Below are positions 35,392 through 46,620 of a DNA stretch of 64,000 nucleotides, piece by piece. How positions within the stretch are numbered: the stretch's first letter is position 1; each line of letters starts with the position of its first letter. This stretch comes from a phage. The DNA lies in NCBI GenBank assembly GCA_025812035.1, contig GCA_025812035.1_4719.1. One strand, 5' to 3'. A program made the position numbers and the translations under genes. The notes beneath the pieces were generated by a model. It ran no database searches, was not told the DNA's origin, and saw nothing but the letters and a program-made list of their open reading frames with translations.

Positions 35392-38004
35392 TTATGCGTC
35401 CGGCGTAAAATCAAAAGGAACGTCCGTACGAATGATATCATAGCGTTTTCCTAAGAAATAGAACTCCTCGGGGACCTGACCGGGAACAATACTATCGCCG
35501 ATGAACTGCGGATATGCCCAGATGTACTGAGTGAGTCCTTCGAACATATCCAGGTTATTTGCGTGGTTACCCATGATACGTTTCCAAAGTTCGCGTTTAT
35601 ACGGTGTTTTAACATCGAACCCATAAAGCGGTGCAAGATCCACACCAGGCACAAATCCCAGGTAGTAGTGGATCTGACTGACCGGGAAACCAAGCGTATC
35701 TCGCGGAATGGTGATCGCTTGCTCAGCCTTGGTGACATGCGTCTCAATAATCCAGTCGTAGCACTCCGAATAGAACCGATCGAATTTCTCTGGATTATAC
35801 CACGCTTTGGGAAGATTCAATTTCTCCGTAAAATCGTTCGACATGATCGTCGGCAAGAAAGGAAGTATGCCCGTCTTTATTTGCGTGTATTTTGATTTTA
35901 CGCGATTTACCAGATTCCAACAAGCATAACCGAGCTGATCGTTACAGAACTCAACGTACAGATCGTAATCCCCTCCCGATAATGGATTATTAATATCACC
36001 GATATCAGCTGCGTATTTGTTGGGGTATCGTGTATTAAATGCCAGTTTGGTTTGGTAATCGTAAATGCACGGTTTATTGTTCTTCGTGTTAATCCACCAC
36101 CATGGCTCACCTACCTGCACGCAAATGTCCTGGACATGAGGATAGATAATATCAGCAAATGCTGTTAACACATCCCCTAACCACGCCATCGCATGTTGGT
36201 TACATGGAGACAACAACCAAGACGGTGGCGTATATCCGGTTGCTGCTATGTTTCCTTCCCAATCCTGCTGCGCCCACTCGAATGGACACGCTGTACTCAT
36301 CAATTCGTAACTTAAACTGATGGTGACAGAGAAATGGTGTTTTGCGGCGTATGCAGCAAAGGCTTCATGCCATGCAATACAGGGTGGATTTAGTACATCT
36401 GTGGTGTTCACCAGTAACTTACCCGCACTTGGTGTCCAGACAGTATCGTAGAAATGCGACATTCCGACATAGTGCACTAATTCATCCTGATAACCCGCAT
36501 ACACCAGGTTTTCAAATACACGCTCTGGCGTGATGTTGTAATGGTCATCATAAGCGGTTATTGCACGAAGCTCATGCGGTGTGCAACGGTGACGATTAAC
36601 CGTCATTTCCTGGTACACCCCATCGATAGGAAGAATCTCGATGGTTAAACCAAGATCGATCGGCGTTTCCAGATAGGTCGTTTCTGTAGCACCTTCTTTA
36701 TAATGTCGAGAACTCATGCTGAACATCAACGATGTTACCGATTCAAGTTCGATGGGTTCGTCAGCATAGAACCCCGCCATCGCATCGTTGAAATCGATCG
36801 TCACGGTCGCACTCGTACCGTCTTTAGAAACGTCGGTTGCATATCGGGTTAATGAGATATACTGGCGACTATCGTCTTTGTGAACGACGGTTAAAACCGG
36901 TGGGTTTTCAGTATCAGCAAAATTACGCTGGTCGCCAGTAAACGTGATCTTCGCTTTAAAGATCAAACCGAATAACGACGTCATGGGGGCATACGCAACG
37001 CAACCATGATCCAGTGTATCCGTTGTTCGCCATTCTATCCCGACCAACCCGTTAGCGGTATGACATCGCATATACGCGTTAAGTACCATGTCTTCACTGA
37101 CAACCGCGAAGTTCTCTGTTGACTGACCGTTGATAATCCAATACATCGGTTGCCAAAGATTACGAGTACCTTTTGCATAGCGGTAGGTTGGCGCGCCTTT
37201 TGGGTTGCCGTTATTAAGATGGAATACAGCAGTACCTTGGTAGTGATCGTTCGTATTAATCGGAACGCTGTAAGCGTCACCGATATCCGTACGTTCGACC
37301 TTAGCGACTGTTGCGTTTTCAAACAGTCCACGTAGCGTAGGAAGACCAATATCTTCAGGCGCGTTTTCTCGACGAATCGCATCCGCGATGCGATGGGCTA
37401 AGGCGGGGTAAATGACTTCACCTTGTTGCAGGTTCGCAAGCCCTGCGAAACGATCGGGGTCGATGCCAGCAATCAATAACTCGACATCACCCTTCGTTCT
37501 ATCGTCGCGGAGGTATTTCAGTCCAGTAAGATCGAGATGTCGAATTAACGACAACAGATCGTACTTACGGTTTTCAACAGTCAGTTCGAGATCACCTGCC
37601 CAAACCAAACTTCCCTCATCCGCCGCTACTCTAACGGATTGTCGGCCTGTGGTAGATGTTGTTGTCGTTTTATTTAATTGCTCTTGTAGGAAGTCGGTTG
37701 CGAGGTCAAAGGCAACGCCGTAACGGTCAGCGACGGCTTGCATGATTTCACGTAACTGGGTATCTTCTTCAATGATAATCTTGACAGGTATTCCCAAGAA
37801 CGCTTTAGTGAGGTCCCGCTTAACCATCGAGACGAATACGGATTTGTAATACCGGCTTCCATCTTTCCCTTTAAAAAGAATGGAAGTTGTTTCGGGTGAC
37901 GATAGAACACGTGCAAATTCAACATCGTCGAATGTAAGAGAAAGTCCGTTTTTCTCGTTGGTTAATCTTAATATTTCATTTTGCGCGGTTTCATGTAACT
38001 TCAT
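35392..38004 (-). CDS. Putative tail fibre / receptor-binding protein, 870 aa
   Basis: N-terminal ~100 aa (KRDLTKAFLGIPVKIIIEED...YGVAFDLATDFL) shared with the 44028 and 44712 proteins; unique long C-terminus; sits in the fibre cluster. Confidence 0.55.
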   Translation of the reverse strand: MKLHETAQNEILRLTNEKNGLSLTFDDVEFARVLSSPETTSILFKGKDGSRYYKSVFVSMVKRDLTKAFLGIPVKIIIEEDTQLREIMQAVADRYGVAFDLATDFLQEQLNKTTTTSTTGRQSVRVAADEGSLVWAGDLELTVENRKYDLLSLIRHLDLTGLKYLRDDRTKGDVELLIAGIDPDRFAGLANLQQGEVIYPALAHRIADAIRRENAPEDIGLPTLRGLFENATVAKVERTDIGDAYSVPINTNDHYQGTAVFHLNNGNPKGAPTYRYAKGTRNLWQPMYWIINGQSTENFAVVSEDMVLNAYMRCHTANGLVGIEWRTTDTLDHGCVAYAPMTSLFGLIFKAKITFTGDQRNFADTENPPVLTVVHKDDSRQYISLTRYATDVSKDGTSATVTIDFNDAMAGFYADEPIELESVTSLMFSMSSRHYKEGATETTYLETPIDLGLTIEILPIDGVYQEMTVNRHRCTPHELRAITAYDDHYNITPERVFENLVYAGYQDELVHYVGMSHFYDTVWTPSAGKLLVNTTDVLNPPCIAWHEAFAAYAAKHHFSVTISLSYELMSTACPFEWAQQDWEGNIAATGYTPPSWLLSPCNQHAMAWLGDVLTAFADIIYPHVQDICVQVGEPWWWINTKNNKPCIYDYQTKLAFNTRYPNKYAADIGDINNPLSGGDYDLYVEFCNDQLGYACWNLVNRVKSKYTQIKTGILPFLPTIMSNDFTEKLNLPKAWYNPEKFDRFYSECYDWIIETHVTKAEQAITIPRDTLGFPVSQIHYYLGFVPGVDLAPLYGFDVKTPYKRELWKRIMGNHANNLDMFEGLTQYIWAYPQFIGDSIVPGQVPEEFYFLGKRYDIIRTDVPFDFTPDA

Positions 38005-38026
38005 TGAAAACCTCAGCCTTTTAGAA

Positions 38027-38668
38027 TTAGATGTACTGCTTACCGCCCACGAAGGAAGTCAGCCAGTTCCCTGAAACAAGCTGCGATACCCAACCGGGTA
38101 CCGCTCTACCATTCTGGCTCATGATGTTACCACACCAACCAGGGAATCCGGGACGGATATAATAGAAAGTTAAATTGTAGAGATGGCAATTCCACACCGC
38201 AACGTTATGTTTACCAGAAACCGCTTTAAAGACAAACGCAACGGGTAAAGGCGACGATAGCAATTCGGTCACAGGGACGGCTGACCAATTCGCATTCGCG
38301 TTCCACGGTTGCCAGGTATGGCTACGCGAGTCGCAAAATACGTTACCGTTGTTACCGCGCCCACCCGCATTCCACCACAGCGACGGACTCATGTTCTTAA
38401 GTGAGGTAAATTGCTGCGGTGGAATATTAGGAATAATAACAGGGTTGGTACCTTGCCCATGTTTCTTTTCTTTTGCGTTCACATACCCGCTTATCGATTC
38501 GAGGTATTTGACACCAGGATAATTGTTCTGGACTTGTGTCGCAATATCACGAACATCAAACGTCCAGCAGATCATGGTGTTGTAGTAAGCATCGGTGTTG
38601 TCGTACCATGCGTTACCATCTTGTAAACGTGCGCCACTATTCGGTGTTTTATCTGTGTTTATAGCCAT
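38027..38668 (-). CDS. Hypothetical protein, 213 aa, conserved-C-terminus pair member A
   Basis: C-terminal ~40 aa (FYYIRPGFPGWCGNIMSQNGRAVPGWVSQLVSGNWLTSFVGGKQYI) nearly identical to the 38780 protein; N-terminus divergent. Confidence 0.55.
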   Translation of the reverse strand: MAINTDKTPNSGARLQDGNAWYDNTDAYYNTMICWTFDVRDIATQVQNNYPGVKYLESISGYVNAKEKKHGQGTNPVIIPNIPPQQFTSLKNMSPSLWWNAGGRGNNGNVFCDSRSHTWQPWNANANWSAVPVTELLSSPLPVAFVFKAVSGKHNVAVWNCHLYNLTFYYIRPGFPGWCGNIMSQNGRAVPGWVSQLVSGNWLTSFVGGKQYI

Positions 38669-38770
38669 GGTATTGTCCTATACGTTGACGGTTGAGATGT
38701 CGGATGCCGGATGTGTGTTGTCATCCGGTGGTACGTACAGAAACACCCACAGATAAAACAGTAGCTTCTC

Positions 38771-38793
38771 TAACTTCAATTAAATTGAAGTTA
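38771..38793. promoter_or_regulatory. 23-bp palindrome TAACTTCAATT-A-AATTGAAGTTA overlapping a stop codon
   Basis: Perfect 11-bp inverted arms at the 3' end of the 38780 gene, adjacent to a second hairpin (CCGGATG...CATCCGG). Confidence 0.35.
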
Positions 38794-39496
38794 GATATTG
38801 TTTACCTCCAACAAACGACGTTAACCAATTACCTGAAACAAGTTGCGATGCCCAGCCAGGCACTGCCCTACCGTTCTGGCTCATCACGTTACCTGCCCAT
38901 CCCGGAAAACCCGGCCGGAAAATATATACTTGAATATGTGTTAAAGCGTTATCATTACCACCGCCAACAGCAACGTTACGACTCCCAGATGACGGGAAAT
39001 ATTCTTTTAAGAACAGAGGATCGGTTGCTAATAAAGATGCGGGCCAAGGGTTCGCGGATGCATCAACATCGAATTCGGTCCATCGCCATTTACGTCCCGT
39101 GTCGAACCATGTCGATGTACCGCCTCCACGCACTGCAAGATTGCGTGCGTCGCGGGCATTGTAAATTGATTCGATGTTACGCCACCCACCTTTTGCGGCG
39201 TTTGCCGCATAGCAAATCGCATTACCACCATTCTTCTTTTCGTAAACAGTTCGTTTGATATGAACACGATCGATGAACGCTTCACCGTATTTGTTGACGA
39301 GCGTTTGTGCGATATCACGAAGATCGTGCATGTGAAAAGCGATGTCTTCGTTATGGAACCATGTTGTCGGGTTCCAGACGGTACCGTTTGGTTCGGCACA
39401 CATCGATCGGATATTGTTGCGTTGATTAACCGCGATAAAACCCATTGTATACCTCGTTCCTATTCTCAAAAAGGAAATTTCATACGATGACGCCAT
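38780..39496 (-). CDS. Hypothetical protein, ~238 aa, conserved-C-terminus pair member B
   Basis: ORF track 38780..39532 begins inside the hairpin; ATG (MASSYEISF) follows AAGGAGG that forms the hairpin 3' arm. Confidence 0.55.
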   Translation of the reverse strand: MASSYEISFLRIGTRYTMGFIAVNQRNNIRSMCAEPNGTVWNPTTWFHNEDIAFHMHDLRDIAQTLVNKYGEAFIDRVHIKRTVYEKKNGGNAICYAANAAKGGWRNIESIYNARDARNLAVRGGGTSTWFDTGRKWRWTEFDVDASANPWPASLLATDPLFLKEYFPSSGSRNVAVGGGNDNALTHIQVYIFRPGFPGWAGNVMSQNGRAVPGWASQLVSGNWLTSFVGGKQYLTSI

Positions 39497-39500
39497 AGCA

Positions 39501-39530
39501 GCTCCTCCTTCCCTTACGGGTTGGAGGAGC
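39501..39530 (-). terminator. GNRA-loop hairpin, family copy 5, inverted orientation; 3' arm carries the SD of the next gene
   Basis: Plus strand GCTCCTCC-TTCCC-TTAC-GGGTT-GGAGGAGC is the reverse complement of the other copies; 3' of the lipoprotein gene; minus-strand AAGGAGG lies 7 nt before the ATG at ~39496. Confidence 0.6.
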
Positions 39531-39538
39531 ATACTTAA

Positions 39539-40045
39539 TTACTCGCTGATAACCTCAACGGAATTGGGATCAGCGATCATCGCACGGTCAGTAGAACAAT
39601 TGAAGAAGACCATGCCGACACCATCGCCGTTCGAGTTCAGGGTTGAACTTACGTAAGACAGGGTTGGTTTATTCATGCGGTAGAAGCGTTCGCTGGTAGC
39701 GGTATTGAACCCCAGATCAACGTAGTCTTTCACCGTGGTATACAGCTGCGTGGATTCGAAGACGGTTACCGGAGAGTCAACGGTAAATTGACTACCTTCA
39801 TCCACAACCAGAACCTTATCGTTCCAGATTTCAGTGGTTGAAAACTTCGGTTTCCAATGTTCGAATTCCTGGGTTGCACCCCAGCAAGAATACACAGCAA
39901 GATTGCTGTTCTTCTCAACAGGTTTCAAACCCACCAGTTGTGTCAGGTCTTTATCCAGGTTCGGTAAGCCTTCCAGCGTAGCACACCCGCCCAGAGAAAG
40001 CACCATCAACATACCAAGAACGATCGCGCAAAGTTTCTTCATCAT
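39539..40045 (-). CDS. Putative lipoprotein, 168 aa (candidate superinfection-exclusion factor)
   Basis: Signal peptide with lipobox MLMVLSLGGC; immediately downstream of the fibre and Tfa genes. Confidence 0.65.
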   Translation of the reverse strand: MMKKLCAIVLGMLMVLSLGGCATLEGLPNLDKDLTQLVGLKPVEKNSNLAVYSCWGATQEFEHWKPKFSTTEIWNDKVLVVDEGSQFTVDSPVTVFESTQLYTTVKDYVDLGFNTATSERFYRMNKPTLSYVSSTLNSNGDGVGMVFFNCSTDRAMIADPNSVEVISE

Positions 40046-40086
40046 CGGATTTCCTTATATGTTAACGGAAGTGATTTCCATAGTAA

Positions 40087-40503
40087 TTACATAGCAGCAG
40101 GAAATTCCGGCCAATCGATATTTGGTGCAGCATCGGTATCGACAGCCGTCACGGCATCGATGTAATCCAAAACAGCATTAAGTTGAGTCGTTTCTTCCGG
40201 AGTCAGTTTTCGCCCAGCCCGTAATTTTAACTGAATAAGATCGATGGAAGCCAGCGCTGAATCAATCTTTGATTGTTTTATCTGTTCTGCCTCGGCGACG
40301 AGATCTTCGTGCTGCCGCTCGGGTTCAGGAGGCGCGATAAACTCGCCATCCGAGTATAACCAACCTATTCCAGGTGACACAGTTACCGCATCGCTAATAC
40401 TAACCAACTGTTGATTGTCGGATATATTGAGCTCTGCCTCACCATCGTAAACGATCGTGTTTACTACTACCCCATTTTCAATAACAGCGTATGATGTACT
40501 CAT
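40087..40503 (-). CDS. Tail fibre assembly chaperone (Tfa / P2 gpG-like), ~138 aa
   Basis: ORF track 40087..40527; start at MSTSYAVIENG overlapping the fibre stop (TAATG). C-terminal LTPEETTQLNAVLDYIDAVTAVD...NIDWPEFP is the Tfa signature. Confidence 0.8.
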   Translation of the reverse strand: MSTSYAVIENGVVVNTIVYDGEAELNISDNQQLVSISDAVTVSPGIGWLYSDGEFIAPPEPERQHEDLVAEAEQIKQSKIDSALASIDLIQLKLRAGRKLTPEETTQLNAVLDYIDAVTAVDTDAAPNIDWPEFPAAM

Positions 40504-43500
40504 TACATAAACTCCTCGATGATGCAAATCCCATTAGCACCACGCCCACCAGGCTTAGCGCTTCCTGAGAAAGAGTTGTCGTAAGCACCACCACCACCCG
40601 AACCAGGCGCGAGGCCGTTGTGGGCGGTGCCAACACCGGCGCGACCGCCACCGCCCCAATATGACGCACCCCCACACCCACCGACAGTAATAGTACCGGC
40701 TTGTCCGTCGCCACCGTCTCCGCCCGGAATGCGTATATCCCCGGTATTAGGTACGCCCCCATAGCCACCACCAGTGTTTGTGATAGTTGTTTTTCCTGCG
40801 CCTTGCCCGCCGGGAGCGGTTAGCAGGGATGCAAATTTACTATCCCCACCCCCGTTTCCAGATGTTGCTCCAGAGCCGCCGGAACCACCAGAACCAATTA
40901 CAACAGAATAACTAGTAGCTGATATCGTTATAACCGAAATTACTGTTCCACCGGCCCCACCGCCAGCACCAAAAAACGTTTCACCGTTGGAAAAAGCCTG
41001 GCAACCACCGCCACCGCCTCCACCACCGGTTATTGTTACTCTAATCCGTTTTGTTCCTTGTGTTGGGGTGTACGTCCCTGACGATGTGAAAACACGCATG
41101 TTCAGTAAACGTCCGACATATCCGCTAGAATCGGCTAAACCAAGATCTTTAGCTGCTAACGTGATATTAGCTGTACCGTCAAACGGTTTACCGTTAATCG
41201 TGCGCGCAGTCTGCAACTTCGTCGCCGTTGCTGCGTTTCCTGATGTATTCTGGTTTCCCGCGGCGTTAACACCCGGCAGATTGATGTTCGCACTACCGTC
41301 GAAAGACACCCCACCAATGGTGCGAGCTGTTTTCAGTTTTGTCGCCGTGGCAGCATTACCGGTCGTGTCTTGGTTACCGGTGGTGTTTACCCCAGGCAGG
41401 TTGATATTTGCCGTTCCGTTAAATGAAACACCACCAATCGTCCTTGCCGTTTGCAACTTCGTTGCGGATGCCGCATTCCCCGTGGTGTTTTGGTTACCCG
41501 TTGCATTCACGCCCGGGATACTATCCTTAGATGTGTAGATCTGTGCCCATTCCGACCAGTTCGAATCGGTTGCATCACGACGTGAACGTAGGTAAGCTGG
41601 AGCGTGTGCGCCCGCGGTACCTGACCACCCAATAAAGATCTCGCCTTCACCGACCGATGAAGCGCCTTTAAGATGAATGACGTTACCATAAGCGGTAGGA
41701 TATCCGTTATTGTACGCTTCATACATCTGGATGCCCGCATTGCTGCCCTGAGCTGTGTTAGCTAAAGCCGTAACACGACCTTTGGAGGCGAGAGCGGTAA
41801 TACTGAAGCTAATGTCCTTAGTACCGTCAAAGGCGACCCCATTAATCTTCCGTGCTGTTTGGAGTTTCGTGGCAGTAGCCGCATTACCAGAGGTACTCTG
41901 ATTACCTGCTTTGTTCACGCCTGGTAAATCAATGTTGGCTGTTCCATCAAAGGACACGCCCCCTATGGTTCTCGCCGTCTGAAGTTTTGTTGCTGAGCCA
42001 GCGTTTCCGGAAGTGCTTTGATTACCTGCCGCGTTGACACCCGGTAGGTTAATGCTAGCAGAACCATCAAAAGAAACTCCACCTATCGTGATCGGTGTTT
42101 TCAATTTCGTGGCTGTCGCGGCGTTACCCGTCGTATTCTGATTACCGGCTGCATTGACGCCAGGTAATGCGATATCGGCCGTACCGTCGAACGCGACACC
42201 ACCGATTTTACGGGCGGTTTGTAGCTTGGTCGCTGTAGCCGCGTTACCGCTGGTATTTTGCGTGCCCGCTTTATTTACACCGGGAAGATCGATGTTGGCA
42301 GAACCATCGAATCTGACGCCACCTATCGTTCTTGCAGTAGCAAGTTTAGCTGCTGTGGCTGCATTATTGCCCACTTTTAGCCAATCATCCCATGGACCAT
42401 CCTGGCCGTTCCACGACGCCGTTAAACCACGTACGTAAATATTGCCTGTACGTACAGTGTACCGTTGCATCCCACCGAATTGTCCGGCTGGGAGTACTTC
42501 AAGGTAACCTGCGGCATTTGCTTCAGGGAAATTGTGGGCGGCGTCCGCGTTCGTCGCTATTGGTTTAGACCAAATACCCACAGACGCTTCAACCGGACCG
42601 TAGGTATTCAGATTTGCGTCAGCAGGGAGTGGTCCTCGGAAACGCAGTAATTGTATTGGCGTTAACCCCAACGTTCTTTGCATTCCCTCGACACTCGATT
42701 GCGATAAAAGTGCCCGAGCTGTCGACGTGATGGTCGCTAAAGCAACCTTGTCGACTCCAGTGAAATAAGGGAATTTGTTCGCTGATGTCGCTAAACCTGA
42801 AAAGGCGGTCAGTAATGCATTAAGGGGTTGCTTCCCAGCTAACGCTTTCGTTACTGTCGTTGAGAAATTAGGATCACTTCCTATAGCTCGAGCCAGCTTA
42901 TTAAGCGTATTTAGCGCATCTGGAGACGAGTCAATCAACGACGTGATCGCACGCATCACAAATTCCGTGTTGGCAATCTGTCGACTGCTATTGTTAATTG
43001 CTGCGGTGGGTGTTGTTGGAGTACCGGTGAATACAGGACTATTAAGATCCGCCTTGAGAGCAATGAGGCGTTTAAGTGCTTCGACATCGACTTTCAGGTT
43101 TTCCCACCCGATGAGAGAACCGTCTCCGTTGGTATGATAACGGTTATACCAGAAGTCGCCGTTAACACCCCAAAAGAATATACCTTTCTCTTCGTTTTGC
43201 GGGCCGGAACTATTTCGCGATGAGCCGATATATTTGATTTCAATAAGACCCTCAAACACGACTCCCGGGATTATTTTGTTGTCTCCAGCTGACTGTACTA
43301 CTTGATAAACTCCAGGCGTTGCTGCTCTAACCCATGTTAAGAATTCCGTTATTCCAGCGGTGCCACTGAAACGCTTAACGTCGGTAAGTATCGCCCCATA
43401 ACCGAACATACCCGGTAACGCAACTCGTCCGCCGGTACGGTCACGAATATTTGAGGCAACGACGGGCAGCTTTTTACGAACGCTGTTAACCGCCTTAGGT

Positions 43501-44021
43501 GTGGCTGCTTTTGTCTCGTCATCGCTATCGATGGCGTTGCTCAGGATGGTCAGTCCTCGCTTATCTATGGTTGCGTCGGGAAGAAACGCGTTATCCAACA
43601 CTTTAAGCTGTACAGCGCTCGTGTTACTAACAACGAGATACATCTGGCAGTTAAGAACGCTGCTTGCGCCTTCAGTAGGAACAGGCTTGTATCTTTCCGG
43701 TGCGCTGCAGACAGCGACCAGAACACCTCGATCGTCATACAAGCCGATTTCGCGTACCCAGAATCCACCTTGGTTTACAGGAATAATACCCTCAACAATA
43801 ATCCTGGTTGTGTCGTCTGCGTCAACGCGGATGTTAGAAACTTCCCCGCGATAAACTTCGTGTACAAGGGCTGTTTGACTAGCATCGGGAGTTGGTGTAG
43901 AGCCGTTACCGTCACCAACGGCAAAATGTGTAATTTTTAGTTTCTCGCCGTCCGGAAGTAGTGCGGCGGCGATACGTTCAGTACCTTTATCGGTAATGAC
44001 CGTTCTATATGTTGTACTCAT
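40503..44021 (-). CDS. Long tail fibre protein, 1172 aa (P2 gpH / lambda Stf-like N-terminus, fibre repeats, Gly-rich C-terminal tip)
   Basis: N-terminus MSTTYRTVITDKG...HFAVGDGNG...GGFWVREIGLYDD...ETKAATPKAVNSV is P2 gpH-like; ~8 copies of a ~40-aa repeat (TARTIGGVSFDGSANINLPGVNAAGNQNTSGNAATATKLQ); C-terminal ~165 aa Gly-rich. Confidence 0.85.
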   Translation of the reverse strand: MSTTYRTVITDKGTERIAAALLPDGEKLKITHFAVGDGNGSTPTPDASQTALVHEVYRGEVSNIRVDADDTTRIIVEGIIPVNQGGFWVREIGLYDDRGVLVAVCSAPERYKPVPTEGASSVLNCQMYLVVSNTSAVQLKVLDNAFLPDATIDKRGLTILSNAIDSDDETKAATPKAVNSVRKKLPVVASNIRDRTGGRVALPGMFGYGAILTDVKRFSGTAGITEFLTWVRAATPGVYQVVQSAGDNKIIPGVVFEGLIEIKYIGSSRNSSGPQNEEKGIFFWGVNGDFWYNRYHTNGDGSLIGWENLKVDVEALKRLIALKADLNSPVFTGTPTTPTAAINNSSRQIANTEFVMRAITSLIDSSPDALNTLNKLARAIGSDPNFSTTVTKALAGKQPLNALLTAFSGLATSANKFPYFTGVDKVALATITSTARALLSQSSVEGMQRTLGLTPIQLLRFRGPLPADANLNTYGPVEASVGIWSKPIATNADAAHNFPEANAAGYLEVLPAGQFGGMQRYTVRTGNIYVRGLTASWNGQDGPWDDWLKVGNNAATAAKLATARTIGGVRFDGSANIDLPGVNKAGTQNTSGNAATATKLQTARKIGGVAFDGTADIALPGVNAAGNQNTTGNAATATKLKTPITIGGVSFDGSASINLPGVNAAGNQSTSGNAGSATKLQTARTIGGVSFDGTANIDLPGVNKAGNQSTSGNAATATKLQTARKINGVAFDGTKDISFSITALASKGRVTALANTAQGSNAGIQMYEAYNNGYPTAYGNVIHLKGASSVGEGEIFIGWSGTAGAHAPAYLRSRRDATDSNWSEWAQIYTSKDSIPGVNATGNQNTTGNAASATKLQTARTIGGVSFNGTANINLPGVNTTGNQDTTGNAATATKLKTARTIGGVSFDGSANINLPGVNAAGNQNTSGNAATATKLQTARTINGKPFDGTANITLAAKDLGLADSSGYVGRLLNMRVFTSSGTYTPTQGTKRIRVTITGGGGGGGGCQAFSNGETFFGAGGGAGGTVISVITISATSYSVVIGSGGSGGSGATSGNGGGDSKFASLLTAPGGQGAGKTTITNTGGGYGGVPNTGDIRIPGGDGGDGQAGTITVGGCGGASYWGGGGRAGVGTAHNGLAPGSGGGGAYDNSFSGSAKPGGRGANGICIIEEFM
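41140..41525 (-). repeat. Tandem ~117-bp coding repeats inside the tail fibre gene, block 2
   Basis: About three copies encoding the ~40-aa fibre repeat; near-identical DNA between copies. Confidence 0.7.
41795..42360 (-). repeat. Tandem ~117-bp coding repeats inside the tail fibre gene, block 1
   Basis: About 4.5 copies encoding TARTIGGVSFDG...NAATATKLQ-type repeats. Confidence 0.7.
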
Positions 44022-44027
44022 GGCGTT

Positions 44028-44555
44028 TTATCCCGGGTAAATAGTGATGGTGTCACCAACGAGGGTTGTGGCACCAGAGTAAAGATACGCTGGTGATGCT
44101 TCACGTTGGTTAGTCACGGTAAGATTCATTTGCCCACGCCAAACCATGGAGGTATTCGCGATGGGAATCAAGATCTTCTTGGAAGTATCGTCACGAAAAT
44201 TAATGGTGGTAGCAAGGGTAGCTGAATCAAAATCAACGTCAGGTTCAAAGATGAACCCGTATTGATCTGAAATAGCTTGAATGACCGCTCTTATAGTTGT
44301 TGTTTCAACCGACTCCAAAACGATTTTTATCGGTATTCCTAGAAACGCTTTCGCGATATCACGTCGTGTGTAAGTAATAAAACTCTCACCACACCACCTT
44401 GTTCCTTCATTTGCTGTGACGATCACTTTTGCCCTGTTAGCACCAGAACTCCCATCCAGGGTTAAAGTGAGATCGGAGTTACTGAATACGCTACTGTTAC
44501 GTTGGTTTATCAACGCAATCAGTTCGTCCTTCCACGGCGGGTAAAGTGAACGCAT
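44028..44555 (-). CDS. Short protein with the shared fibre N-terminal anchor domain, ~176 aa
   Basis: ORF track 44028..44576; start at MRSLYPPWKDE after GGAGGAGGG. YTRRDIAKAFLGIPIKIVLE...QYGFIFEPDVDF matches the N-termini of the 870-aa and LRR proteins. Confidence 0.55.
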   Translation of the reverse strand: MRSLYPPWKDELIALINQRNSSVFSNSDLTLTLDGSSGANRAKVIVTANEGTRWCGESFITYTRRDIAKAFLGIPIKIVLESVETTTIRAVIQAISDQYGFIFEPDVDFDSATLATTINFRDDTSKKILIPIANTSMVWRGQMNLTVTNQREASPAYLYSGATTLVGDTITIYPG

Positions 44556-44667
44556 AAGCGCACCCTCCTCCAACAATCAATTAAAATGCAAAACACCTCG
44601 AAACCAGAGTGCGATTCGAAGCAAGCGTAAACGGCCTGAACGACCGCATAAAATTCCGCGCATATTA

Positions 44668-44701
44668 CCCCCTCTACCCCGACAAAGCGAGGTAGAGGGA
44701 G
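44668..44701 (-). terminator. C-rich/G-rich hairpin
   Basis: CCCTCTACC-(12-nt loop)-GGTAGAGGG, 3' of the LRR fibre gene ending 44712. Confidence 0.5.
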
Positions 44702-44711
44702 AATAATACGA

Positions 44712-46466
44712 TTATGCTGCTACGTATCCAGGCCAACGTTCTCTTGGCCAGTTTGTTGCACCCTGTCCGACGGTGTCTTTACCAGAAATGACGTTACTTA
44801 CATCCCATCCACTCAGATCCTGATTGAATGCGGTGTTCTCGCGCATCATGAGATCGATCTTACGTAGTGAGTGGGTATTCCAACCAGATATGTCTTGGTT
44901 GAATGCTTTATTGTAGGCAAACATGTTAGACACGTTCTGTAATTTTGACGTGTTCCAACCACTGATGTCGCTATTGAACGACGTGCTTGAGAACATGCTG
45001 CTCGCATCAACAAGATTGTCGGTTTTCCAATTAACCACTTTATCGCCGTCAAATGCATTGCTGCTGCTGAACATAAAACTCATATTGCTAGCTTTGGACA
45101 CATCCCATTTATCTAACCCTTTACCGACGAACTCATTACATGCCGAGAACATCCAGCTCATATCGGTAACCCGACTCACGTTCCATTTGCTGAAGTCAAG
45201 GTTAAGTTTCTGACACCCTAAGAAGGTCTTATACATGTTGGTGATGCGACTAACATCCCACTCTTGGATGTTAGGGTCGTTAAGCGTCGTTAAGTAGTTG
45301 AACAATGTCGCTAACGACGTCCATTTCTCTGGAATCCGGTTTGGTACCGTACGAAGCGATGCAAGGTTGTTGGTTGACGGAGAGCAGAACATACCGTTAT
45401 CCCAATTTACGATTTCCGTAATTTTGGACCCTTTGATCGTCTGAGTGGTATTACCATCTTTCACTATACCCGTAGCAACGATGGTATATTCACCGGTGCC
45501 TGCATAATCGTGGGCGTAGGCACCGTTACTTGAGGTCTCCGTTACTTTATTCCCATCACCCCAATCGATATTAACTTTATCCCACCCACTTAGGTTGAAC
45601 TGTACTTTGCCTCCGGTAGCTTTTAGGATGTATTTACCTCCATTGTCGGTAAAATAGCAGACAACCATTGAACCGTACAGATTACCTATCCGCCAATCAT
45701 CCTTTTCTGTCACTGCGATTTGCGCTAAGCCACGCTGTACGAAGAGTACTGTGCGGTTCTCGTCAGTCTGTAATGTGGCTAATGCTTGGGCCTTATCGTC
45801 CTCGCTAATTTCATTAGCGCTCACTAAAACGCTTAACATTCTTTCGAAGTATTCGATGGGTAATTGACGTCCTACAGACTTATCAACCGACGGTTCAGCA
45901 AGATCGCCCAACGCTGCAGTGGTGGCCAGCATCAACGAACCCTTGGTCATATCTGTTTCTTGTAGGTAGTGCAGTCCTGTAATCTGGTACGCTTGAATAA
46001 TCGTAATCAGGTTCAGCGTATCGTTAACGACCTGTACTTGTAAATGTCCAGACCATACGTAGCTGCTTTCGGCAATTGGTAGTTCGACCGACTGGATACC
46101 TGATGTTTCAAAGGTGATCTTCTTGTTAAGATCGGTTTCCAGGAAATCAACAGCGAGGTCAAAATTTATACCGTACTTCTCAGCGATAGAATCCACGATG
46201 TTTCTGAAAGCAACGTCATTATTTACGATGAAACGTAATGGGATTCCTGCAAACGCTCTAGCAATGTCTCGACGAACATACGTGAGCGACTGCTCGAAGA
46301 AATAGGGGCTACCATCTCGCGGTTTAATGGTCACCTGACATACTTCGGGATATTCAGCTGGGATTAACGACACGAATTCAACATCGGATTCTTTCAATGA
46401 AAGCATATTCTTCCGGTTTACTAATGCCAGAAGATCGGCTTTCCAACCAGGATAAACTGTAGACAT
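44712..46466 (-). CDS. Putative receptor-binding protein with BspA/DUF285-type leucine-rich repeats, ~585 aa
   Basis: ORF track 44712..46550; start at MSTVYPGWKAD after GGAG. Shared N-terminal anchor; C-terminal repeats WNVSRVTDMSWMFSAC, WDVSKASNMSFMFSSS, WNTSKLQNVSNMFAYN, WDVSNV. Confidence 0.65.
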   Translation of the reverse strand: MSTVYPGWKADLLALVNRKNMLSLKESDVEFVSLIPAEYPEVCQVTIKPRDGSPYFFEQSLTYVRRDIARAFAGIPLRFIVNNDVAFRNIVDSIAEKYGINFDLAVDFLETDLNKKITFETSGIQSVELPIAESSYVWSGHLQVQVVNDTLNLITIIQAYQITGLHYLQETDMTKGSLMLATTAALGDLAEPSVDKSVGRQLPIEYFERMLSVLVSANEISEDDKAQALATLQTDENRTVLFVQRGLAQIAVTEKDDWRIGNLYGSMVVCYFTDNGGKYILKATGGKVQFNLSGWDKVNIDWGDGNKVTETSSNGAYAHDYAGTGEYTIVATGIVKDGNTTQTIKGSKITEIVNWDNGMFCSPSTNNLASLRTVPNRIPEKWTSLATLFNYLTTLNDPNIQEWDVSRITNMYKTFLGCQKLNLDFSKWNVSRVTDMSWMFSACNEFVGKGLDKWDVSKASNMSFMFSSSNAFDGDKVVNWKTDNLVDASSMFSSTSFNSDISGWNTSKLQNVSNMFAYNKAFNQDISGWNTHSLRKIDLMMRENTAFNQDLSGWDVSNVISGKDTVGQGATNWPRERWPGYVAA

Positions 46467-46620
46467 AAGCACTCCAATCATGGGGCGGTAACCGCACCCA
46501 ACGGTTAAATTGTCGATTATGGTCGTTGCTGATAAGACGACCATAACCAACGATGTTTAATATGTAGTATATTGATATCATGACGTTATGGGGATCTAAG
46601 TCATACCATGGAGACGGCGA

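Follow-up and report, generated by a model that had tools for sequence, protein, structure and literature searches.

Old, diverged repeat units and array-length variation in the long tail fibre of a Goslar-like jumbo phage

The question raised by the locus considered here is whether the tandem repeats of a long tail-fibre gene form a built-in recombination substrate through which the fibre is readily lengthened or shortened. The gene lies on the minus strand of a 64,000-nucleotide stretch of phage DNA (NCBI GenBank assembly GCA_025812035.1, contig GCA_025812035.1_4719.1), hereafter the window, and the original prediction, made from the letters of this stretch, held that two blocks of near-identical repeats would permit expansion and contraction by virtue of their high DNA identity. 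The explanation favoured here, to which a probability of roughly 0.72 is assigned, is that of a modular, Goslar-like fibre whose repeat units are old and diverged, and whose array length has changed through rare deletions at short stretches of microhomology. Nothing in the analysis indicates a high-frequency length switch.

The gene encodes the long tail fibre of a jumbo phage that resembles Goslar and belongs with the nucleus-forming Chimalliviridae. The nearest phage record is that of the Escherichia coli jumbo phage Goslar, with 88.8% nucleotide identity across the matched portion, and the fibre protein is 77.3% identical at the amino acid (aa) level to Goslar gp090 over 100% of the query (tblastn). 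An exact match to the protein is found in EKA1377512.1, encoded on a contig of 238,607 bp within an E. coli assembly. As a whole, the gene is an ordinary mosaic of known modules: an orthologue of Goslar gp090, with a shaft like that of P1 gpS and a tip like that of Pam3. The gene and its repeat array are laid out as follows.

40503..44021, minus strand: long tail-fibre gene, orthologue of Goslar gp090 (HOV27_gp090), 1172 aa, a single open reading frame (ORF)
41766..42365, minus strand: repeat block 1, five 120-bp (40-aa) units W1-W5, aa 553-752
42246-42365, minus strand: W1, unit of block 1
42126-42245, minus strand: W2, unit of block 1
42006-42125, minus strand: W3, unit of block 1
41886-42005, minus strand: W4, unit of block 1
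41766-41885, minus strand: W5, unit of block 1, repeat match confined to the first half
41478..41765, minus strand: non-repeat spacer domain between the blocks, 96 aa, aa 753-848
41118..41477, minus strand: repeat block 2, three units W6-W8, aa 849-968
41358-41477, minus strand: W6, unit of block 2
41238-41357, minus strand: W7, unit of block 2
41118-41237, minus strand: W8, half-unit of block 2, repeat match confined to the first half

Two blocks with about eight copies of a repeat of some 40 aa had been described, and eight exact 40-aa units (5 + 3) are indeed present, with an actual period of 120 bp in place of the ~117 bp first given. Within the 64-kb window the unit is restricted to the fibre gene. 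The description of the copies as near-identical DNA did not survive alignment: the six complete units are just 62-72% identical as DNA and share no exact run longer than 11 nucleotides (nt), while their protein identity, at 70-90%, is far above chance. The four complete units of block 1 show 62-69% nucleotide and 75-80% aa identity, pairs involving the half-units W5 or W8 fall to 47-57% nucleotide identity, and self-blastn of the repeat units returns 66-70%. Tandem Repeats Finder, run at its lowest threshold (minimum score 30), reports no 120-bp array, because DNA identity is low; the repeats are still present.

Where this divergence lies is apparent from the codons. Among the six complete units the proportions of synonymous (pS) and nonsynonymous (pN) differences, estimated by the method of Nei and Gojobori, are 0.88 and 0.14, respectively, and orthologous units of the window and Goslar have a pS of 0.28. 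At positions where two units carry the same residue, the codon matches in 30.5% of cases, as compared with 33-34% for independent draws from phage codon usage. The units are thus old paralogues, kept alike as protein by structural constraint and randomised at synonymous sites, and since these sites have drifted to randomness no long tract remains for ordinary homologous recombination. The minimal processing segment for homologous recombination in E. coli is roughly 20-30 bp, and the longest run of 11 nt, lying below it, therefore counts against a switch driven by such recombination.

Related genes display the same pattern. DNA of thirteen was considered, comprising those of twelve relatives and of Goslar, and the 11 analysed unit by unit contain no unit pair above 82% identity and no shared run longer than 29 nt. 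Likewise, none of 121 proteins contains an identical pair of units, the maximum being 38 of 40 aa. One protein with adjacent units at that maximum (P0029) was considered as a candidate fresh duplication and rejected, its DNA being only 81% identical with a longest run of 20 nt. Recent duplications do happen in the wider 40-aa repeat family, outside the window and its close relatives: arrays of 40-aa units in four non-Goslar fibres on IMG/VR contigs (L005, L013, L016, L024) include unit pairs that are 94-99% DNA-identical, with exact runs of 39-83 nt. The lesson is that repeats conserved as protein need not repeat as DNA.

Despite this divergence, the number of units varies. The comparison of copy number across related genomes that had been proposed was carried out, and counts differ from genome to genome. 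Across 120 cluster representatives, 3-8 units are counted in block 1 and 0, 3 or 4 in block 2, for totals of 5-11. The proteins of relatives, many of them encoded on contigs of 233-249 kb, differ in length by steps of 40 aa (956, 996, 1132, 1172, 1212, 1252 and 1292 aa). Relatives thus carry shafts of no fewer than seven discrete lengths, from 5 to 11 units, and even genes that are otherwise DNA-identical can differ in this way. Goslar itself carries 7+4 units to the 5+3 of the window. Orthologous units, whose DNA is 86-96% identical, can be paired as W1=G1, W2=G4, W3=G5, W4=G6, W5=G7, W6=G8, W7=G10 and W8=G11, with G2, G3 and G9 of Goslar having no window counterpart. A separate length difference lies upstream of the array, where an insertion of 32 aa (roughly aa 465-500 of Goslar gp090, L001) is present in Goslar and in some relatives (1324-aa and 1244-aa forms); the window is without it. 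A literature search found no paper on repeat-number variation or a quantised length series in Goslar-like fibres.

A change in array length presumably alters the length of the fibre. Adenovirus serotypes have trimeric fibres of different lengths, depending on how many short, diverged pseudo-repeats they contain, and the triple beta-spiral of these fibres extends by about 0.9 Å per residue; by this analogy, one unit might add 3-4 nm, as a rough guess. The adenovirus fibre is unrelated to that of the window in sequence and host, and serves as an analogy only.

The nature of the length changes is best read from four pairs of relatives with the cleanest junctions, listed here with the short allele first.

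L090 and L089 (long): in-register indel of 240 nt, 0 mismatches in the 3519-nt gene, junction run of 8 nt
L091 and L088 (long): indel of 360 nt, 13 mismatches in 3.9 kb, junction run of 8 nt
L081 and L084 (long): indel of 120 nt, other differences 1.5%, junction run of 5 nt
L083 and L084 (long): indel of 648 nt, other differences 3.2%, junction run of 7 nt

In each case the hybrid unit at the junction matches the respective parental unit on either side. The crossover runs of 5-8 nt are among the longer in-register runs available, and never the longest, which points to a short-homology or slippage-type deletion in preference to recombination over long identity. In L083 the 648-nt deletion joins W3 to W6 and takes out W4, W5 and the spacer domain together with the greater part of W6. 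The first pair (L089 3001-6759 and L090 3001-6519, from NCBI assemblies GCA_958336805.1 and GCA_958312855.1, respectively) combines fibre genes free of mismatches with flanks that differ, by about 4% upstream and by scattered single-nucleotide polymorphisms downstream, a pattern that would fit a deletion of very recent date or, alternatively, a fibre gene that has lately passed from one phage to another.

The direction of these changes can be judged from the units concerned. The extra units of the long alleles share just 69-76% identity with adjacent units and are therefore not fresh duplicates, so that the recent events appear to be contractions. As far as the aligned sequences allow polarity to be assigned, the recent changes would be deletions, and no fresh duplication was found in the lineage. 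Of the earlier suggestion that high DNA identity drives expansion and contraction, the variation in unit number among relatives is therefore upheld; the cause is not, since the units are about two-thirds identical and the cleanest junctions fall at runs of 5-8 nt.

Taken together, these data are best accommodated by a fibre assembled from modules, in which an attachment domain of the P2 gpH / P1 gpS type is followed by a shaft of 5 + 3 units, split by the 96-aa spacer, and by a tip that most likely binds the receptor. Rare in-register deletions, which we infer from the junctions, would fuse two units where 5-8 nt happen to match, by way of short-homology recombination or replication slippage, and only in-frame, in-register products would survive, as others would break the fibre. 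Long alleles could persist, or may be regained, through exchange between phages. Alternative tips are swapped at the last half-unit.

Several points weigh against this explanation and account for the reserve with which it is held. The polarity of the deletions is drawn from divergence between paralogues and not from a rooted tree. Single-unit duplications would yield hybrid units and not identical ones, and could thereby evade an identity test at the protein level. An eight-unit array also has a weak three-unit periodicity (units 2 and 5 are 79% identical, units 4 and 7 76%), which hints at an old three-unit duplication, and the origin or regain of long arrays is not covered by a deletion scheme. 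With respect to sampling, most relatives are metagenome or Logan assemblies and not isolates, the variation is read from assembled sequences and not from sequencing reads, and variant pairs are over-represented because the protein database was clustered at 90% identity; the counts are accordingly used solely to show that variation exists.

Of the competing explanations, exchange between alleles fares best, even though it is unlikely to be the principal source of the length series. According to this proposal, co-infecting Goslar-like phages swap distal fibre segments through conserved flanks, with each array remaining stable and no event taking place within the gene. The gene is clearly mosaic, bearing three alternative tips on one shaft, and exchange would readily explain two protein pairs (P0044/P0003 and P0040/P0011) in which the N-terminal 550 aa are 100% identical and about 100 mismatches lie distally, as well as the occurrence of one 216-aa deletion allele in backgrounds that are 83-93% identical to the window. 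What it does not explain is that several pairs differ by a lone in-register indel, among them L090/L089, with 0 mismatches and differing flanks, and L091/L088; nor does it account for hybrid junction units that match both parental units, which are the signature of an intragenic event.

A second proposal concerns the synonymous divergence and holds that selection has diversified the codons of neighbouring units, thereby suppressing recombination and stabilising the array. The use of identical codons is slightly below expectation (0.305 against 0.33-0.34, z -1.3 to -1.8), and in the 8+3 array of L088 codon identity is lowest, at 0.31, between adjacent units. Three reference codon sets were used, however, and against two of them the deficit falls short of significance; the saturation of old duplicates (pS 0.88) fits equally well, and adjacent units are not the lowest in two of four arrays (L085, L082). 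Active codon avoidance is accordingly not claimed, and adaptive scrambling is regarded as improbable.

Still less credible is the mechanism with which this analysis opened, namely that near-identical units undergo frequent expansion and contraction, mediated by RecA-type or phage recombinases, as a built-in, high-frequency switch of fibre length. Its appeal lies in the observation that copy number differs among relatives, nearly identical genomes included, a property that the window array does have in common with contingency-type loci composed of high-identity tandem repeats. Near-identical DNA, the other hallmark of such loci, is absent from the window array, in which complete units are 62-72% identical, share at most 11 bases and form no array for Tandem Repeats Finder; moreover, the four cleanest junctions lie at microhomology of 5-8 nt, and fresh duplicates were found neither in the Goslar-like genes analysed as DNA nor in the 121 proteins. 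Such a switch may nonetheless hold elsewhere in the family, in those phages whose 40-aa units are 94-99% identical with runs of up to 83 nt. Finally, that the length variants are artefacts of short-read assembly caused by collapsed repeats is very unlikely, for although many relatives derive from Logan or ENA short-read assemblies, the 5-8 nt shared at junctions and the longest exact inter-unit run in any gene analysed, 29 nt, are at or below the k-mer sizes that assemblers usually use, which makes collapse at the junctions implausible, while variants recur on independent contigs or samples (P0026 on three, P0073 on two, the 956-aa form in three clusters) and an isolate, Goslar, with 7+4 units, is likewise unlike the window with its 5+3.

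If length variation by microhomology deletion is accepted, it may be asked whether it serves an adaptive end. It is conceivable, though doubtful, that the fibres of Goslar-like jumbo phages evolve rapidly and adaptively in length, by steps of 40 aa, to match for instance the depth of the O-antigen or capsule of different Enterobacteriaceae, and that synonymous scrambling prevents runaway recombination yet permits clean deletions; were this so, the loss of the spacer in the 956-aa and 996-aa alleles would represent a distinct functional morph. No new mechanism is required by the data. In-frame changes in the number of repeated segments are already known from tail fibres, and in this respect the window lineage resembles two experimental systems in which fibre duplications alter the host range: T4 gp37, for which an in-frame duplication is on record (Tetart et al. 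1996, J Mol Biol 258:726, as cited in PMC6365445), and Enterococcus phage EfV12-phi1, in which a fresh 1.8 kb tandem fibre duplication arose during coevolution with a host evolving resistance (PMC6365445). Those are fresh experimental duplications, whereas the events in the window lineage are losses of old, diverged 120-bp units deduced from genome comparison. The quantised Goslar-like series is thus a modest but useful by-product, and could serve as a natural set of length variants with which to test fibre length against adsorption and host range. Goslar is a model nucleus-forming jumbo phage, and the analysis also adds a domain map of the fibre and a likely receptor-binding tip with a solved relative, Pam3 gp24.

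The remaining modules of the fibre, and the gene that follows it, occupy the positions below.

43599..44021, minus strand: N-terminal tail-collar fibre domain, aa 1-141, presumed baseplate-attachment end (Pfam PF12571 Phage_tail_fib, E 2.3e-44)
43479..43571, minus strand: lone Phage_fiber_2 repeat, aa 151-181 (Pfam PF03406, E 4.3e-10)
40506..41117, minus strand: C-terminal tip, aa 969-1172, TNF-like and glycine-rich, presumed receptor-binding domain (Pfam PF21722)
40501..40505, minus strand: TAATG stop/start overlap of the fibre and tail-fibre assembly chaperone (Tfa) genes
40512..40517, minus strand: GAGGAG Shine-Dalgarno sequence for Tfa, within the last fibre codons, 8 nt upstream of the ATG
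40087..40503, minus strand: Tfa, 138 aa (Pfam PF02413 Caudo_TAP, E 1.4e-20; PHROG 188)

The N-terminal match to PF12571 scores 151 bits against a cut-off of 23. Through this tail-collar domain and the downstream gpU/gpG-type Tfa, the window fibre resembles the P2 gpH / P1 gpS (Mu S-type) fibres. Consistent with this likeness, the record of Goslar gp090 (YP_009820775), which names the product 'tail fiber protein' or 'tail fiber repeat protein', notes a similarity to P1 gpS and lists the conserved domain COG5301, and homology to the P1 S shaft covers aa 320-965 of the window fibre at about 47% identity. In S, the P1 record already marks 'repeated elements', named a0, a1, b1 and b2, of which the last two are likewise only 62% nucleotide-identical; a motif search finds a single unit of the exact 40-aa type in P1 S. 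The arrangement of repeat, spacer and repeat is a cassette common to P1 gpS, SSU5-like phages and other enterobacterial phage fibres. A search of PDB sequences with the whole fibre (phmmer) matched nothing beyond 58 aa of a Bxb1 collar fibre protein and gave no solved relative of the 40-aa unit, and an NCBIfam scan yielded nothing useful.

The fibre gene has a G+C content of 51.0%, compared with 46.1% for the whole window. This difference is consistent with a module common to P1-like enterobacterial phages, and Gly and Ala codons raise G+C as well. An antisense ORF at 40987..41538 on the plus strand, with a poly-Pro run, was set aside as the complement of poly-Gly codons and no gene.

The spacer domain, which is 72% aa-identical to a segment of P1 gpS and occurs in several PHROG tail-fibre families, contains an RSRRD..WSEW motif and is missing altogether from the 956-aa and 996-aa alleles. 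When a profile of the spacer was searched against the PDB, nothing significant emerged, the sole match being an FN3-like one (E 0.7) that involves the 'WSxW' region of leptin receptor, and an AlphaFold2 (AF2) monomer model built from a shallow alignment was unusable, with a predicted local distance difference test score (pLDDT) of 37.8.

The tip was modelled with far greater success. The glycine-rich character noted for the last ~165 aa is borne out, with 33% Gly in that segment and a GGGGGGGG run at aa 999-1006 (positions 41004-41027), and Pfam PF21722 (Gly_rich_2), which has a cut-off of 24.3 bits, is matched over aa 980-1169 with a score of 47.8 bits. The last ~210 aa match 7382 cluster representatives (E<=1e-3), and the match reaches the C-terminus in almost all of the 150 matches listed. 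An AF2 model based on 25 diverse sequences (pLDDT 92.6, predicted template modelling score 0.88) predicts a beta-sandwich joined to a glycine-rich lattice. In Foldseek searches of the PDB the top match to this model is the fibre gp24 of cyanophage Pam3 (7YPX; template modelling (TM) score 0.72, 28% identity, E 5e-10), followed by mycobacteriophage Bxb1 tail-tip chains (9D93 at 0.60) and then by the TNF-like/glycine-rich ('TG') domains of ALK and LTK (probability 0.8-0.99).

By comparison with these relatives, the tip most likely binds the receptor. Like the window fibre, Pam3 gp24 has a TNF-like and glycine-rich distal domain and is followed by a gene for a Tfa-like chaperone (gp25), with which its tip has been solved as a 3:3 complex (PDB 7YPX/7YFW; PMC9608196). 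The two differ in what carries the tip: Pam3 gp24 is a minimal fibre of 280 aa with an alpha-helical shaft, whereas the window tip sits on a repeat-containing fibre of ~970 aa. Pam3 gp24 has been related by its authors to S16 gp38 (PMC9608196), and the gp38 adhesins of T2 and S16, which consist of a polyglycine-II sandwich with glycine-rich motifs alternating with hypervariable segments, similarly present a glycine-rich lattice where a long tail fibre meets its receptor. Gp38 is, however, a protein in its own right, a monomer that docks onto the gp37 trimer, while the window domain is fused to the fibre C-terminus, and the S16 gp38 chain (PDB 6F45) is not among the 50 Foldseek matches listed for the tip; on both grounds the candidate assignment of the tip as a gp38-type adhesin was rejected.

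Three alternative tips occur on the same shaft in relatives (homologues P0069-P0120): the Gly-rich tip, a tip of ~140 aa that ends in GATNEGY and has no Pfam match, and a Peptidase_S74 intramolecular-chaperone tip. The alternative tips join directly after the FDGxxNITL motif of the last half-unit. Such swapping is typical of mosaic tail-fibre evolution. In P1, the tip is switched by Cin-mediated inversion of the C segment, and the P1 tip domain differs from that of the window. No cix-like inverted repeats flank the window tip, the region 40400-44100 containing only weak inverted repeats of 15-21 nt with 76-87% complementarity, and no alternative tip copy is present in the ORF list for 37000-46000, although a whole-window search for an invertase was not made.

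The Tfa gene matches PF02413 at 74 bits against a cut-off of 22.1. As the original prediction had stated, the fibre stop codon TAA shares one base with the ATG of Tfa, and a 1-nt overlap is called in every relative with a complete downstream gene. This overlap, together with the Shine-Dalgarno sequence lying within the fibre gene, makes it probable that fibre and Tfa are translationally coupled. By analogy with Pam3 gp25, Tfa most likely helps to fold the tip.

Window and Goslar have in common the gene order DUF7941 gene, fibre, Tfa and small lipoprotein-like gene; gp090 has the same flanking genes, the Gly-rich tip and a TAATG-type coupling as well, and the neighbourhood is kept in relatives with sufficient contig, which have DUF7941 upstream and Tfa and the 167/168-aa gene downstream. 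The gene directly after Tfa (39539-40045, minus strand, 168 aa) is a homologue of Goslar gp088, with a gene of 167 or 168 aa at the same position in relatives, and starts MMKKLCAIVLGMLMVLSLGGC, a lipoprotein signal with a lipobox. Its position beside the fibre genes recalls that of receptor-blocking lipoproteins such as Llp of phage T5, to which it might be compared.

Farther downstream, the window differs from Goslar in possessing an extra gene. The genes at 38780-39532 (minus strand, 250 aa) and 38027-38668 (minus strand, 213 aa) are paralogues, 39% identical overall, with C-terminal segments of ~50 residues that are nearly identical (..RPGFPGW.GN.MSQNGRAVPGW.SQLVSGNWLTSFVGGKQY). Goslar, L089 and L090 carry only the 213-aa copy, the 250-aa paralogue being the addition in the window, and Pfam gives no family match for either protein.

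In Goslar, gp90 has been found in virions by mass spectrometry, and the tail fibres were not resolved in the virion cryo-electron microscopy map (preprint 10.64898/2026.04.21.720040). DUF7941 genes surround the fibre of the window, at 44028-44576, 44712-46550 and 35392-38004 (minus strand), as identified by a Pfam match for 44028-44576 and by the annotations of relatives, and members of this family have been proposed to form a 'fibre cloud' with carbohydrate-binding or hydrolase domains (Goslar preprint 10.64898/2026.04.21.720040).

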